Source: Bdellovibrionales bacterium
GTDB taxonomy: Bacteria > Bdellovibrionota > Bdellovibrionia > Bdellovibrionales > Bdellovibrionaceae
Assembly (NCBI GenBank): GCA_031370005.1
Contig: JANMPT010000014.1
Span: forward strand, 1-29,644
Direction: 5' to 3'
DNA: 29,644 bases
Of this stretch, positions 5,171 to 28,460 are shown one piece after another. The notes under the pieces were generated by a model that did no database searches, had not been told where the DNA came from, and saw only the letters and a program-made list of their open reading frames with translations. Positions within the stretch are counted from its first letter, which is position 1; each line of letters begins with the position of its first letter. The position numbers and the translations under genes were made by a program.

Positions 5171-6796
5171 CTAGTTTTTCCGAATGACGACTGATTTCAT
5201 CAAGGGGTCCTCATCGGGGAGCTCGAAGTCCAAGCAGAACCCTGGCGAGGATAGCACCGTGAAGTAGAACTGACTTTTGAGTTTCTGGATATTCTTCACA
5301 AGATCTGCTTGGGTCCATTTTTCATAGTTCGTGCAAAATAACAGCAGACCACCTTTGCCGAGGCAATAGAGACAATTTACGAGGAGCTCCTCATAGTTCT
5401 TACTGATACTGAAGGTTGAGTTTTTAGACCGGCCGAAGGAGGGCGGATCGCAGATGATCAAATCAAATTTGCGTTTACGACGAGCTGTACCTTTTAAGAA
5501 AAGAAGGCTGTCTTGAACCCAGAACTCATAAATTGGTCTTGGGGCTTCTTCTGACATCATGGATTTGAAATCCAGTTTTGGCCGCGGGATGATTTCCTCA
5601 GACGTTGAAACAGACAGCTTGTTGATCTCAAAATTCTTTTTACTCCATTGGATGAAGTTGCTGCTGACATCTACGGTGACAACTTCTTTAGCTCCACCAA
5701 GGGCCGCATTGACGCTGAAGCCTCCAGTGTATGAAAAAAGATTAAGAACTGCTTTGTCTTTACTATGCTCGCGGACCCAGCGGCGATTTTCGCGTTGATC
5801 TAGGAAGAGCCCAGGGGAAAGGCCTGTGTCATTGCGACAGTCGAATTTTACCTTATTTTCAGAGGCAATCCAACGCAGGCTTTCTTTGCTAGGCCACAGA
5901 ATTTGTGCATTGGGGTCTTCTCCGCGATTGAGCATTTTGCGAACAAAATATTTTTTGCCAAATCGTTTTGAAACTCGTTCAAAGCGTTGCAGGTCTTTTT
6001 CCGTGGGATCATTGTCCTTATACCAATAAAACCACAGATACTCGCCAAACATGTCTATGCGGTAGGAATCAATGTCCTGGTGGCTTAGACGGAAGCATTC
6101 ATTGGGTTTAGATTGAAAATCCAAGAGCCATTGGCGTTTTTGGAAGGCTTCTAAAATCATAAGCTCTTCCTGCTCTATATTCGGATCATTCTCAAGATCA
6201 CTTATCCAAACAGGGGCTGCTGCTTGAAAACTGAATTTTTGTGACTTGTATTCAAAGTTCAGACTATCTGCATGAAGGCAAAGGCGATAAAAGGGGCTGC
6301 CACCGTGCTCTTTACAACCAAGAACGGCAATGCCGTTAGCTTGAGCGTGCAGACGAATTTGATGAGGCTTTCCCGTGATGGGCTCAGCTTGCCACAAATC
6401 GTAGAGTCCTAAGTTTTTTAGTTTTTTAAAATGAGTTTTGGAGTTGAAGGCTGAGTTCGGACGGCCAGAAATATTTATGAATTGCCCCTTTTCTTTTTCA
6501 ATTAGAGATTCATATTCGAAACGGTCTTTGTTTATTTTTTTATCCGTGAGGAAAAAATATTTTTTTTGAATAAGATGCTTTTCAAACAGGGCGGCGAGTT
6601 CTGCGGCTCCCTGCTTGCTTGTGGCAAAGAGCATGGCTCCAGAGGTTTCTTTATCGAGGCGGTGGACAACAAAGAGCTCTTGCTGTCTTATTTCTGAAAG
6701 AACCTCGACAAAACCCTTTTTGCCAATGTCTGGCGAATGGGTGTTATAGCCCGATGGTTTTTGTGTGAAAATAAAGTCAGAGTGGGGAGGGGTCAT
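5171..6796 (-). CDS. Fusion of an RluA-family pseudouridine synthase and an RlmI/RlmK-like class I SAM methyltransferase
   Basis: N-half has KPSG, VHRLDKETSG, TGKPHQIRLH, LCLHA; C-half has GLFLDQRENR, VLNLFSYTGGFS, DLIICDPPSF; start set at ATG 6796 to avoid the lemA leader. Confidence 0.88.
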   Translation of the reverse strand: MTPPHSDFIFTQKPSGYNTHSPDIGKKGFVEVLSEIRQQELFVVHRLDKETSGAMLFATSKQGAAELAALFEKHLIQKKYFFLTDKKINKDRFEYESLIEKEKGQFINISGRPNSAFNSKTHFKKLKNLGLYDLWQAEPITGKPHQIRLHAQANGIAVLGCKEHGGSPFYRLCLHADSLNFEYKSQKFSFQAAAPVWISDLENDPNIEQEELMILEAFQKRQWLLDFQSKPNECFRLSHQDIDSYRIDMFGEYLWFYWYKDNDPTEKDLQRFERVSKRFGKKYFVRKMLNRGEDPNAQILWPSKESLRWIASENKVKFDCRNDTGLSPGLFLDQRENRRWVREHSKDKAVLNLFSYTGGFSVNAALGGAKEVVTVDVSSNFIQWSKKNFEINKLSVSTSEEIIPRPKLDFKSMMSEEAPRPIYEFWVQDSLLFLKGTARRKRKFDLIICDPPSFGRSKNSTFSISKNYEELLVNCLYCLGKGGLLLFCTNYEKWTQADLVKNIQKLKSQFYFTVLSSPGFCLDFELPDEDPLMKSVVIRKN

Positions 6797-6878
6797 GTCC
6801 CTAAGCGTTACACGGATTTGATTGTCGGTCACGGGGAGTTTCAGTAGATTGATTTCACATTTAGGAGGATTCATAGAG

Positions 6879-7472
6879 ATGAAAACACTAGCAAAAATAA
6901 TGTCATTATTTTTAACACTTACGGTTCTCTCTGGTTGCGGAGTTCAATCTATTCCTCAGGCAAAGAACCAGGTCGAGGCTGCCTTGGCCGAAGTGACTAA
7001 TCAGTACAAACGTCGGGCCGACTTGATTCCAAATCTCGTGAATGTGGTAAAGGGTTATGCAAAGCATGAGGAAAAGACTCTGACATCTGTTATTGAGGCT
7101 CGTGCTAAGGCAACACAGGTGACGATTGATCCAAGCAAGGTGACCCCTGAAAAACTTAAAGAGTTTCAAGCAGCGCAAAGTGGAGTTTCTCAGGCTTTGG
7201 GAAGACTGATGGTTGTCTCAGAGCAATATCCGAACTTGAAAGCAGACACTCAGTTCAGAGATTTACAAGCGCAGCTGGAGGGTACTGAAAATCGCATTAC
7301 GGTTGCTCGTCAAAGATACATCCAGGCTGTGCAGGATTTTAATAACCAAGTGACTGTTCCGCCAACAAGTTGGACCAACTCTATTTTCTATCATCATGAG
7401 AAAATGCCACAATGGGAGCTTGCTGAAGATGAAAAAGGCAAAGTAGAAAAACCTCCTCAGGTTAACTTCTAG
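6879..7472 (+). CDS. lemA: LemA family protein (lipoprotein type)
   Basis: AGGAGG RBS at 6863-6868; LSGC lipobox; QYKRRADLIPNLV, YPNLKA, LEGTENRITVAR. Confidence 0.95.
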   Translation: MKTLAKIMSLFLTLTVLSGCGVQSIPQAKNQVEAALAEVTNQYKRRADLIPNLVNVVKGYAKHEEKTLTSVIEARAKATQVTIDPSKVTPEKLKEFQAAQSGVSQALGRLMVVSEQYPNLKADTQFRDLQAQLEGTENRITVARQRYIQAVQDFNNQVTVPPTSWTNSIFYHHEKMPQWELAEDEKGKVEKPPQVNF

Positions 7473-7476
7473 TAAA

Positions 7477-8199
7477 ATGGCTCATTGGTTTGTTAGCTTC
7501 ACACTCTTGTTTTTTTCTGGGTTTTGCTCTTTGGCTCGAGGGGAGTTTGAAGTTCCGCGTCTGACGGGGCCGGTGATGGATTTGGCGGGAGTGATTCGCC
7601 CACAAGATCGTAACGAGCTTGAAAAAGTGATTCGCGATTACAACAGCCAAGGTAAAGCGCAGATACAGATCCTGGTGATCGACTCTTTGCAGGGGCTTGA
7701 GATTGAGGAAGCGGCAATCAAGATCACCGACAAGTGGCAGCTCGGGACGGCAAAAAAAGACAATGGTATTTTATTTCTGATTGCGCCGAATGAGCGCAAA
7801 CTGCGTATTGAGGTCGGGCAGGGGCTTGAGGGCACTCTTCCTGATGTGATCGCAAAGCGCATTATTTCAGACACAGTTTTGCCGCTCTTTAAGGCTCGAA
7901 ATCTTTCAGCTGGGGTGGTCGTTGGCACTTATCAGATCATCAAGTATATTGATCAAGAATACGCAGATCAGCATCTTGCGGAACCAGCTCCCGAGTCTAC
8001 GAAAAGCATTCCAGGCTGGGTCATCATTGTGATTTTACTTTTACTTCTTTTTATTGGTCGCTTTTTGCCAGCGTCCTCTTTCCGTGGGGGCGGCTTCGGC
8101 GGTGGGGGATTTGGAGGCGGCGGCTTCGGTGGCGGCGGCGGTGGTTGGTCTGGCGGTGGCGGCGGCTTTAGTGGGGGCGGGGCTTCGGGCTCTTGGTAA
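7477..8199 (+). CDS. TPM domain (YgcG-like) protein with Gly-rich tail
   Basis: DNGILFLIA, RIEVGQGLEG, a TM helix and the GGGGFSGGGASGSW terminus; follows lemA. Confidence 0.93.
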   Translation: MAHWFVSFTLLFFSGFCSLARGEFEVPRLTGPVMDLAGVIRPQDRNELEKVIRDYNSQGKAQIQILVIDSLQGLEIEEAAIKITDKWQLGTAKKDNGILFLIAPNERKLRIEVGQGLEGTLPDVIAKRIISDTVLPLFKARNLSAGVVVGTYQIIKYIDQEYADQHLAEPAPESTKSIPGWVIIVILLLLLFIGRFLPASSFRGGGFGGGGFGGGGFGGGGGGWSGGGGGFSGGGASGSW

Positions 8200-8202
8200 C
8201 TT

Positions 8203-8880
8203 ATGAAACAAAGATGGATTAAAAAATATCTCACAGAAGATCAAATCACAGCTATCGGCAAGGCTGTTCAACAAGCGGAGCTTGGAACCAGTGGGGATAT
8301 TGTTCCCATGGTGGTTCGTCGAAGTTCGGCAGTTCGCCATGTCCCAGTGGTTTTGGGTTTGAGTTTTGCCTTGGTTTTTTTGGGTGTTGAGGTTTTGGGC
8401 TTTAATGGCTGGTATATGAGCGATCTGTTTCCTTTTCTGATGGGGCATTGGGCTTATCAAGTAGGCTTTTTGGCATTTCTGATGCTTATAGCTTGGGGGC
8501 TTTCACATCTTCATCCTGTTCAACGGCATTTAACCTCGGACGAGGATGAGAAAGAGCAGGTTTGGAAAAGGGCCCAGTTGGAGTTTTTCCTGCATCGCCT
8601 GAATCGCACGCACAAAAAAACCGCAGTGTTAATATTTGTTTCCATTATGGAAAGACGGGCAGTGATTTTAGCCGATGAGGGCATAGCCAAAATTCTCCCA
8701 TCAAATACCTGGGAAGAGGTTTTAAAGCCATTAATGGAATTCCTTCGCCGCGGCGAATGGTCCACGGGTTTCCAAGACTCCATTCACCGCAGCGGCGAGC
8801 TCCTCAAAACCCACTTCCCAGAACCCACTAACAACCCCCACACCAACCAAATCAGCAACAACCTCATCATCAAAGAATAA
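8203..8880 (+). CDS. TPM domain membrane protein (third gene of the lemA operon)
   Basis: AELGTSGDIV, two TM segments, VLIFVS..ERRAVILADEGI, HFP. Confidence 0.88.
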   Translation: MKQRWIKKYLTEDQITAIGKAVQQAELGTSGDIVPMVVRRSSAVRHVPVVLGLSFALVFLGVEVLGFNGWYMSDLFPFLMGHWAYQVGFLAFLMLIAWGLSHLHPVQRHLTSDEDEKEQVWKRAQLEFFLHRLNRTHKKTAVLIFVSIMERRAVILADEGIAKILPSNTWEEVLKPLMEFLRRGEWSTGFQDSIHRSGELLKTHFPEPTNNPHTNQISNNLIIKE

Positions 8881-8902
8881 AAAAGGTACCTGGTAACTTT
8901 TT
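8880..8902. repeat. 23-bp near-perfect palindrome AAAAAGGTACC-T-GGTAACTTTTT
   Basis: 11-bp arms with one mismatch and a 1-nt centre, directly after the TPM stop codon. Confidence 0.8.
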
Positions 8903-8980
8903 GCAGTAATGCTGCGTTATTTAGGGCTGGAAAAATATCAACTGCGGTGATAAATAGTGATAGTTCTTATAAATCGAAAT

Positions 8981-9057
8981 GCGGCCGTAGCTCAGCTGGA
9001 TAGAGTACTTGGCTTCGAACCAAGGTGTCGGGAGTTCGAATCTCTCCGGCCGCACCA
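8981..9057 (+). tRNA. tRNA-Arg, anticodon TCG
   Basis: Acceptor GCGGCCG/CGGCCGC, D arm GCTC/GAGT, anticodon arm CTTGG-CTTCGAA-CCAAG (TCG at 9015-9017), T arm GGGAG-TTCGAAT-CTCTC, encoded CCA. Confidence 0.98.
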
Positions 9058-9081
9058 ATTTTAAATCTTAGAAAGATTTAT

Positions 9082-9116
9082 GGTTCTTCTCACTGGTTGG
9101 TTCGGTTCTTCTCACT
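9082..9116 (+). repeat. 13-bp direct repeat GGTTCTTCTCACT x2
   Basis: Copies at 9082-9094 and 9104-9116, preceded by the hairpin TAAATCTT-AGA-AAGATTTA (9062-9080). Confidence 0.8.
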
Positions 9117-9217
9117 TAACAGTTTATCACGAAGCGCATTCTAGTAAAAACAAGCGTTTAGGGTTTTCAAACGATAGTTTACAAAGTTTCTAAAGCCTCT
9201 CGCCCTTCTCTGGAGGG

Positions 9218-27408: not shown

Positions 27409-27576
27409 ATGGAAATCGTAAAATTTGTTTCGTTCGTTGTAAGGCTTGGTTTGCTGCTGGCCTTTGTCGGTCGGCTAAAGTTCTGCACGCTGATGATGAT
27501 GGGGCTTGCTAGCGAAAAGTCACAAAAAGGAATTATGTCGTACTCGAAATACACAAAGCAGCTTACAGGCCGCTAA
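27409..27576 (+). CDS. 55-aa small protein with a hydrophobic N-half (absent from the ORF track)
   Basis: AAAGGA RBS; MEIVKFVSFVVRLGLLLAFVGRLKFCTLMMMGLASEKSQKGIMSYSKYTKQLTGR*; followed by a terminator. Confidence 0.65.
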   Translation: MEIVKFVSFVVRLGLLLAFVGRLKFCTLMMMGLASEKSQKGIMSYSKYTKQLTGR

Positions 27577-27607
27577 AAGCTCTATCAAAACTAAAAAAAT
27601 TATTTTT

Positions 27608-27637
27608 AAGCCTGAAGCTAACCCTTCGGGCTTTTTT
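27608..27637 (+). terminator. Intrinsic terminator
   Basis: AAGCCTGAAG-CTAACC-CTTCGGGCTT followed by a T run. Confidence 0.8.
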
Positions 27638-27673
27638 ATATTCAAAAAACCAAAATTTCATATGGACGTAAAT

Positions 27674-28460
27674 ATGTCGAAAAAAACATTTCTATACATA
27701 AGAGTTTCAACATTAGATCAAGTGAATGGGGCTGAATCACAGGCCCGCGCACTTTTAGAATGGTGCACCCGTAATAACATCACCGAATATGAAACTTTCA
27801 CCGATCACGGCATTTCGGGCGCTAAAGAAAGTAGGCCGCACTTGATAAAATGATGGACCGAGTGAAGCGGCTTGAAGCTGACCAAGTCATCGTTTTTGCC
27901 TTTAGCCGATTCGCCAGAAGCACAATGTATTTACTCAAAGGTTTACAGATTTTCAAGGACTGCAAAACCCGTTTTGTCAGTATTACCGAGCAGATTGATA
28001 CTGAATCCAGCATGGGAATTGCTATGTTTACAATTTTAGGCAGTTTGGCTCAATTAGAAAGATCAATGATCCAAGAAAGGGTTCGCTCGGGTATGAAAAA
28101 TGCGAAAGCTAAAGGTAAAATTATTGGCCGCGTACGCAAAAGAAATTCGGCTTTAATCGAATCGCTTTTAGAAGCTGGATTATCGTTTAGGGAGATTGCT
28201 AGGATCTCAAAATGTTCGCACGGTTCAGTATCAGCCCAGAAAAAGGAATTTTTAGCTCGTAAAGATAAAGAACAAAAGCGAAAATTAGACGATCTTCAGA
28301 AAAAATCACTGAAAATAAATCTGAAAGTCCGATCGATACCATGAAAGCAATGAAAGTTTCAGATGATATTATTCAGCAAGTACAGGTTAAAATCGAAACT
28401 GAAGCTAGAACTAAAGTACATGAAGTTACCGGCGGAGCTGGTTACGAAACATTTGACTGA
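27674..28460 (+). pseudogene. Small serine recombinase (resolvase/invertase type) with two apparent 1-nt frameshifts
   Basis: YIRVST, DHGISG...RP, FSRFARS, ERSMIQERV..G...A...G...GR and a C-terminal HTH; shifts near 27837 and in the A6 run at 28300-28305. Confidence 0.88.

Follow-up and report, generated by a model that had tools for sequence, protein, structure and literature searches.

A strand-specific C/A footprint at silent sites beside dispersed terminal repeats of Y1 transposases in Bdellovibrionota

The TPM gene, its tail and the adjoining palindrome

The stretch of DNA analysed here (the window; 29,644 nt from the genome of a Bdellovibrionales bacterium, G000) carries a TPM-domain gene (8203..8880, plus strand, from the list of open reading frames; Pfam PF04536), which is the third gene of a lemA-TPM-TPM operon, has orthologues in 49 of the 61 genomes searched and bears at its 3' end the footprint described below. 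In the tail of this gene (8755..8877, plus strand) the silent positions are shifted toward C and A on the plus strand, with a peak beside a palindrome (8880..8902, plus strand) whose A-run overlaps the TPM stop codon. The initial annotation had counted 25 C or A endings in the last 26 sense codons and 33 in the last 36, against 7 of 40 at 8341-8460, and had given the limits of the palindrome and a G+T content of 19/28 on its far side; all of these figures are exact. From the amino acids and the codon usage of the genome, 11.9/26 and 16.6/36 would be expected (P 2e-8 and 5e-9), and the C/A fraction of the last 30 codons (0.93) lies above all 2,330 control gene ends (maximum 0.87). The contrast stretch at 8341-8460, correctly counted, is nevertheless not representative, since 15.3/40 would be expected there and the remainder of the gene has 66/175; it is a low outlier. 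In the comparison with G005, a relative without the palindrome, the synonymous differences in the last 40 codons are 12 K>M (G/T to C/A) against 2 M>K, and those in the first 145 columns 20 against 21.

The 28 nt beyond the palindrome (8903-8930) had been read as leaning the mirror way; the lean is not significant (P 0.09) and consists mostly of the inner, non-palindromic part of the repeat (8903..8921, plus strand), a tail of the GC..GCTGCG type which is alike in the terminal repeats of four other loci (L046, L052, L054 and L061) and of which a homologous remnant persists in G005. At the window locus G005 holds only this remnant, with a C/A fraction of 0.53, and G004 a decayed palindrome, with 0.70, so that the window repeat may be old and lost in relatives rather than newly gained. 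Run X1, which may derive from the source sample and is therefore not independent, has a contig that equals 5418-9136 without differences, and at 8770-8930 the contigs of X1 and X2, which cannot show a mutation spectrum, carry no variants.

Downstream of the repeat, and outside the mechanism proposed below, lies a tRNA-Arg gene (8981..9057, plus strand; ARAGORN; Rfam RF00005), the sole match in an Rfam search. The remainder after it (9060-29644) begins at lower GC, holds small accessory genes (regulators, DNA glycosylases, a WYL protein) and is a probable island integrated at tRNA-Arg; a resolvase split across two open reading frames lies at 27506-28344. At the other end, 1-770 is a short unannotated gene region, the end of which is duplicated at the contig start and to which several divergent contigs map; it probably belongs to a small paralogue family.

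The repeat family and its Y1 transposase genes

Comparison of sequences identifies the palindrome as the outer part of a solitary terminal repeat of TIRYT type (GGTACC-start family), that is, as a dispersed non-coding copy of the putative terminal repeat of a resident HUH/Y1 transposase: 20-21 of its 25 bases are identical to terminal repeats around Y1 genes of relatives, and a near-identical second copy lies elsewhere in the same genome (C67:33282). Iterative motif searches of this genome gave 47 matches, which, after removal of two readings of an unrelated palindrome and one doubtful case, left 44 dispersed sites in four variants, nearly all starting GGTAC and running into a T tract; the smallest variant comprises the window copy and that at C67:33282, and 22 of the sites are solitary copies. 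By context, 24 of the 44 lie at the stop codon of a gene of at least 150 codons, at -5 to +7 bp, and nine face the start of a gene on the other strand; the other 11 were not assigned to a gene, genes having been taken from simple ORF calling with high-GC contigs excluded. The bases 5' of the repeat core are A-rich and variable, with no GTAG or GTGG tag. A GTDB scan gave no match to the exact variant of the window; a looser pattern recovered the family, and most of the named records carrying it belong to Bdellovibrio bacteriovorus or are Bdellovibrionales MAGs. At some junctions of genes with this repeat there is also a second repeat family of greater length, and a hairpin of about 22 nt is inserted centrally in some copies (L153 vs L173; L152, L149, L201; L171, L176, L202).

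A REP-type transposase, of the kind that the initial annotation advised looking for, is represented by three Y1 (HUH) genes elsewhere in the genome (C2:42118-42756, C67:138924-139529 and C70:79521-80150), bounded by inverted copies of three repeat variants. Two of the proteins were tested: they have NHFH and YxYxNP motifs and align to E. coli TnpA-REP (4ER8, E 6e-6) with HUH and tyrosine kept; both match PF01797, one scoring just under the curated cut-off, and the NCBIfam RAYT model NF047646 (E 2e-20 and 8e-17), in both cases below its 80-bit cut-off. In a search for a C-terminal HTH, Pfam gave Y1_Tnp alone (E<=0.1).

Y1 homologues are present in 70 of 121 genomes of the family (E<=1e-20) and in 79 of 151 of the phylum (E<=1e-12), and inverted ends scoring at least 15, mostly of the same GGTRCS type, bound 30 of the 33 Y1 loci examined. 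The repeat tracks the Y1 gene across genomes: ten relatives with a Y1 gene have 8-57 pattern matches each, nineteen genomes without a Y1 match (E<=1e-20) have 13, against 31 for the reversed control, and G001, also without a Y1 match, has two. No Y1 gene with ends of the exact window variant was found in the 123-contig assembly of G000, where the nearest family is 2/17 core bases off; closer ends occur in Y1 loci of relatives.

Three further observations concern these genes. In G111 (C1:1866215-1867388) a TIRYT gene adjoins mutS, and the same layout recurs in G097, G131, G139 and G143, probably from one ancestral insertion. A separate multicopy Y1-like family without TIRYT repeats (G000 C2:8915, C55:8769 and C81:33035; L003, L005, L006), for which 16-mer counts indicate about 9-13 near-identical copies, resembles a recent IS in its behaviour. 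A 1.5-kb GC-rich contig of the same assembly (C90; L001), alongside other short high-GC contigs, carries a TIRYT bounded by GGGGACAG-type ends and looks like contamination from another organism.

The skew at other copies and in orthologues

In the window's genome, third-position C/A rises in the last 30 codons over the gene body in 24/24 genes ending at a repeat, and its mean there is 0.74, against 0.49 for the 2,330 control ends (P 2e-13). It decays with distance from the repeat, from 0.79 in codons 1-10 to the baseline by codon 41-50 (about 130 bp), and the fourfold sites nearest the repeat have C 0.60, A 0.19, T 0.16 and G 0.04, with no strong preference of sequence context for the gain of C. 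Among the nine genes facing a repeat on the other strand, seven shift to G/T on their own strand and two are unchanged; since G/T on the strand of a facing gene is C/A on that of the repeat, the skew follows the strand of the repeat and not that of the gene. In the complete genome G111 the shift is equal on leading (17/17) and lagging (8/8) strands, so that it also ignores the replichore. The GTDB scan added 34 Bdellovibrionota genes ending at a repeat, with a C/A fraction of 0.80 in the last 15 codons.

For the orthologue test, 76 repeat sites in six congeners yielded 53 usable gene pairs with an orthologue in G000. In the 24 distinct cases in which the latter lacks the repeat, the repeat-bearing copy is always the shifted one, in 19/19 tail genes (0.73 vs 0.47) and in 5/5 facing genes. 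Among the synonymous differences within 90 bp of the repeat, T>C outnumbers C>T by 100 to 18 and G>A outnumbers A>G by 44 to 22, and G>C occurs 17 times and C>G never, against a background beyond 300 bp of T>C 534 vs C>T 353 and G>A 307 vs A>G 351; non-synonymous differences within 90 bp (39 K>M vs 49 M>K) are neither biased nor raised. On the inner side of the repeat a general mirror effect is weak and inconsistent across solitary copies.

These results establish a one-sided, strand-specific and mostly synonymous C/A footprint, which extends over about 130 bp outside the repeats; its counts come from related genomes that are not independent. The initial annotation had proposed, from this one locus, a change anchored at the palindrome, specific to one strand, largely synonymous, dominated by T>C and G>A and fading over 100-150 bp, and each of these traits holds at the other copies and in the orthologues: every gene ending at one of the 44 copies is skewed, and in all 24 pairs the copy without the repeat has no skew.

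Repeats in other bacteria

A near-identical palindrome occurs, in arrays and in 62 exact copies, in five freshwater Rickettsiales-type MAGs (G398-G402; L245, L251, L260, L282, L301, L388), three of which have a Y1 homologue; it flanks the Y1 gene in G400, and it was found in 1 of the 151 genomes of the order searched, which suggests that it was transferred from, or is common to, Bdellovibrionota. Rho is present in 3/3 of these MAGs tested; MutS, sought as a hit with two Pfam domains, was found in 0/5, the genomes being incomplete. They show no skew: C+A is 0.50 at 23 sites, and the mean shift is -0.02 in the only five genes within 120 bp of a copy, against +0.22 in 59 genes of congeners (55 positive). 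The repeat of these genomes may be recent, hence unskewed. No MutS-positive relative of theirs carrying the palindrome was found.

In E. coli K-12, in which repair is methyl-directed, 28 gene ends at REPs in 300 kb, located by a REP motif, show no shift relative to 177 controls. Pseudomonas-type REPs with a GTGG tag (metagenome contigs L444-L523, the taxonomy of the host being assumed from the REP motif) have a modest skew of opposite polarity on the strand reading in: C+A is 0.37 at the ends of 33 genes facing on the opposite strand, against 0.46 for 11 REP-free and 30 same-strand ends (site-level P 5e-5, one locus omitted). As a separate observation, a GGGGACTGAC-type palindrome, which occurs in 2 of 301 genomes of the phylum, was noticed at two loci (G000 C99:1120-1341, L370; G213 C13:7900-8100, L371); in G000 it has on one side a non-coding C/A tract of about 200 nt, with C+A of about 0.8 in the nearest 100 nt, and on the other a GC-rich hairpin, and its polarity would be the opposite one if the hairpin side is the interior of the element.

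Substitution rates in closely related genomes

Rates were estimated from 100 regions of G111, G097 and G131 (90-94% identical), picked around pattern matches. Third positions vary less close to the repeats: at 27 shared sites the figure is 0.10-0.18 up to 120 bp away and 0.23-0.26 at more than 300 bp. Over the pooled shared sites, T>C and G>A per base equal the background, and C>T and A>G are about 0.6-fold. In genes ending at a repeat, T>C per base is 17/42 (body 0.19) and C>T 27/250 (body 0.18), and among transversions C>G is 2/250 (body 0.044) and A>T 0/99 (body 0.033). Divergence is lower at the gene end than in the body in 17 of 21 repeat genes; in a two-genome comparison control gene ends have 0.174, repeat tails 0.160 and the body 0.219.

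A star-tree likelihood fit to 12 genes at which each of the three genomes has the repeat (302 sites; a small data set on an unrooted tree, with intervals taken from a coarse grid) gave factors near the repeat of x2.04 toward C/A (about 1.6-2.5) and x0.46 away from it (about 0.4-0.55), against x0.94 and x0.88 at control gene ends. Among one-parameter models, reciprocal bias reached a log-likelihood of -478.8, protection only -487.3 and hypermutation only -492.8; a two-parameter model, hypermutation with halved divergence depth, reached -479.4. The substitution bias is thus reciprocal, about 2x toward C/A and about 0.5x away. Recombination at repeat junctions is visible (L153/L173) and can distort rate estimates. 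In a group of these junctions (L153 vs L173; L152, L149, L201; L171, L176, L202) synonymous divergence is dense only in the last 100 bp or so before the repeat, the genes being otherwise 95% identical, a pattern that is that of a recombination tract ending at the repeat.

Interpretation of the footprint

The reading that we favour, tentatively and at somewhat less than even chances, is that, in the resolution of mismatches or lesions, nicks made by the transposase at the repeat favour the retention of one strand over the other. A TIRYT enzyme would repeatedly nick one strand at the outer edge of the repeat (both cut strand and site are what we infer from the footprint); host repair would remove the nicked strand and recopy it from the opposite one, the likeliest agent being MutH-independent MutS/MutL with the nicks as strand signal, and the opposite strand would thus prevail at mismatches and lesions beside the repeat. 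On the strand that reads into the repeat, nicked and rewritten as it is in this scheme, errors of its own (C>T, A>G) would disappear, and those of the opposite strand, of which the commonest would be G opposite T, T opposite G, and deaminated C and A, would end up as T>C and G>A. None of this requires a higher mutation total, and the outcome would be limited to silent sites by purifying selection. In vitro, HUH enzymes of other subgroups (groups 2 and 3) cut single-stranded repeats strand-specifically and leave a 3'-OH (PMC8266576); nicks have been proposed to direct the strand choice of MutS/MutL in bacteria without MutH (PMC8744996); and the errors of Pol I on the new strand favour C>T over G>A and, as the marker list of the same source implies, A>G over T>C (PMC3167613). 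In the genome of the window, MutS and a MutL that carries the endonuclease motif are present, and no MutH was found. The non-synonymous differences near repeats, neither biased nor raised, count against this reading. As MutS is almost universal in the host family (117/121 genomes), no contrast within the family is possible; the Rickettsiales-type genomes, without MutS and without skew, are weak evidence for the repair reading, drawn from one narrow and possibly recently invaded clade.

Preferential retention of one strand in repair should give a reciprocal bias with little change in the total rate, and so should weak selection for a C-rich, G-poor, unstructured strand into the repeat, either as a Rho loading site, with the repeat as terminator, or as a single-stranded flank for hairpin folding; indeed, a selection strength S of about 1.5 predicts mathematically the same rise and fall. 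Rho is encoded in G000 and G111, most copies lie behind stop codons, some of the REPs of E. coli act as partial terminators that depend on Rho, and a C>G skew is seen at many terminators of the Rho type (bioRxiv 10.64898/2026.03.23.713779). We consider selection rather unlikely nevertheless: genes facing the repeat with their start share the DNA-strand bias, so that their mRNAs are rich in G and U at the 5' end, C is not raised at ordinary gene ends, the REPs of E. coli and the repeats of the Rho-positive Rickettsiales-type genomes lack the skew, the polarity on the strand reading in is reversed at Pseudomonas-type REPs and the GGGGACTGAC palindrome, and C is favoured over A, although C could presumably pair with the G runs of the repeat. 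The family-specific polarity and the indifference to gene direction favour a process at the level of DNA, defined by the enzyme, over selection on RNA.

Unlikely too, in our judgement, is local hypermutation, in which, after a nick, Pol I would copy the opposite strand anew, outward from the repeat and with errors, or that strand would be exposed as single-stranded DNA and deaminated, with T>C and G>A raised several-fold. The direction of the synonymous differences fits deamination and the error asymmetry of Pol I (PMC3167613), the decay length matches a repair patch, and T>C per T is doubled in repeat-tail genes (17/42 vs 0.19-0.22); with depth halved, for instance by recombination at the repeat, the fit is nearly equal to that of reciprocal bias. 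On its own, however, hypermutation fits far worse, third-position variation is lower near repeats (though it is lower at control ends as well), transversions away from C/A are suppressed too and amino-acid divergence is not raised. In the rewriting process anchored at a site that the initial annotation had proposed, the anchoring, the strand asymmetry and the length are thus supported, and the mirror footprint and plain error-prone hypermutation, the latter 14 log-likelihood units worse than reciprocal bias unless depth is about halved, are not.

That the repeats insert beside gene ends already rich in C/A is very improbable: insertion is not random, as copies cluster at stop codons, but the unoccupied orthologous ends of G000 have the genome norm of 0.47 against 0.73 with the repeat (19/19), and some copies unique to one of two close genomes show, by eye, little skew. 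That the tail reflects chance, the amino acids encoded or a faulty assembly at a single locus can be practically dismissed despite the unusually low contrast stretch of the initial annotation, given the P of 2e-8 after conditioning on amino acids, the 24 genes of this genome (P 2e-13), the many relatives and the identical read contig. Diversity-generating retroelements are marked by a template repeat with adenine-specific differences and a reverse transcriptase; the variable region of such an element was considered and is an ill fit, the changes here being synonymous, reciprocal and at dozens of unrelated genes.

Biased repair at the repeat could be part of a wider picture, which we regard as speculative, in which the dispersed repeats of domesticated HUH transposases act as fixed strand-discrimination marks, at which enzyme nicks redirect mismatch and lesion repair over about 130 bp and leave in each family a footprint of specific polarity, dependent on the enzyme and on MutS, in Bdellovibrionota and also at Pseudomonas-type REPs, there weaker and of the opposite polarity. 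If true, this would mean that a mobile element directs biased repair of chromosomal DNA, and the genome itself would document where RAYTs are active and with which polarity they cleave. The evidence of cleavage by RAYTs is in vitro (PMC8266576); a strong and oriented footprint at nearly every copy may offer a sequence-level read-out of the activity of RAYTs and TIRYTs in living cells, scorable in any genome and indicative of the strand and side acted on, and the culturable, harmless Bdellovibrio bacteriovorus carries the repeat family. The footprint also shows that an adjoining 40-bp element, rather than translation or replication, can determine the composition of silent sites at gene ends.

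Comparison with known systems

The window repeat fits, as far as motifs and architecture allow, a Bdellovibrionota variant of the TIRtron/TIRYT class (Di Nocera et al. 2013, PMC3733652), corresponding to TnpA-Y1 subclass 2.1 (Quentin et al. 2018, PMC6006769). In the accessible parts of these two papers, the shared features are a Y1 gene with terminal inverted repeats on both sides, a moderate number of dispersed repeats, single or paired, several divergent copies per genome, and the motifs NH[YF]H and Y..NP. The ends differ, being GGTRCS here and carrying a GGGGWSAS terminal motif in some, not all, TIRtrons, other TIRs of which are unrelated to GGGGWSAS (PMC3733652, same portion); subclass 2.1 proteins have a C-terminal HTH-type domain in the part of that description available, whereas Pfam gives Y1_Tnp alone here (E<=0.1). 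No effect on flanking host sequence is described in the same parts of PMC3733652 and PMC6006769.

REP/REPIN-RAYT systems (E. coli TnpA-REP and Pseudomonas REPINs; PMC3116915, PMC5581495 and PMC8266576, each in part) are alike in having a domesticated HUH nuclease and dispersed palindromes that favour gene 3' ends; they carry a GTAG tag and run to hundreds of copies, whereas the present repeat has no such tag and tens of copies. Their flanks differ as well, with no skew at E. coli REPs, a weaker one of opposite polarity at Pseudomonas-type REPs and a strong C/A skew in Bdellovibrionota. The same asymmetry, one strand G/T-rich and the other C/A-rich and fading from a fixed site, is produced by Pol I at the ColE1 origin (PMC3167613), and the A/C bias of the mitochondrial L-strand (PMC1794132) has the same direction; in contrast to both, as presented in the available parts of these sources, the footprint here is chromosomal, about 130 bp long, found at dozens of dispersed repeats and independent of the replichore, and divergence is not raised. 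With nick-directed, MutH-independent mismatch repair (PMC8744996) it would share the proposed principle that a strand discontinuity marks for MutS/MutL the strand to be replaced; that the nick comes from the nuclease of a mobile element and leaves an evolutionary footprint is what we infer here.

A published description of skew beside REP or TIR repeats was not found in the literature searched. The class of the repeat is known, and the oriented substitution footprint is real, reproducible and, apparently, undescribed. What the present analysis adds to these systems is the link to a cognate enzyme family, the test on orthologues with and without the repeat, a bias that is reciprocal rather than hypermutagenic, and the lead toward MutS.
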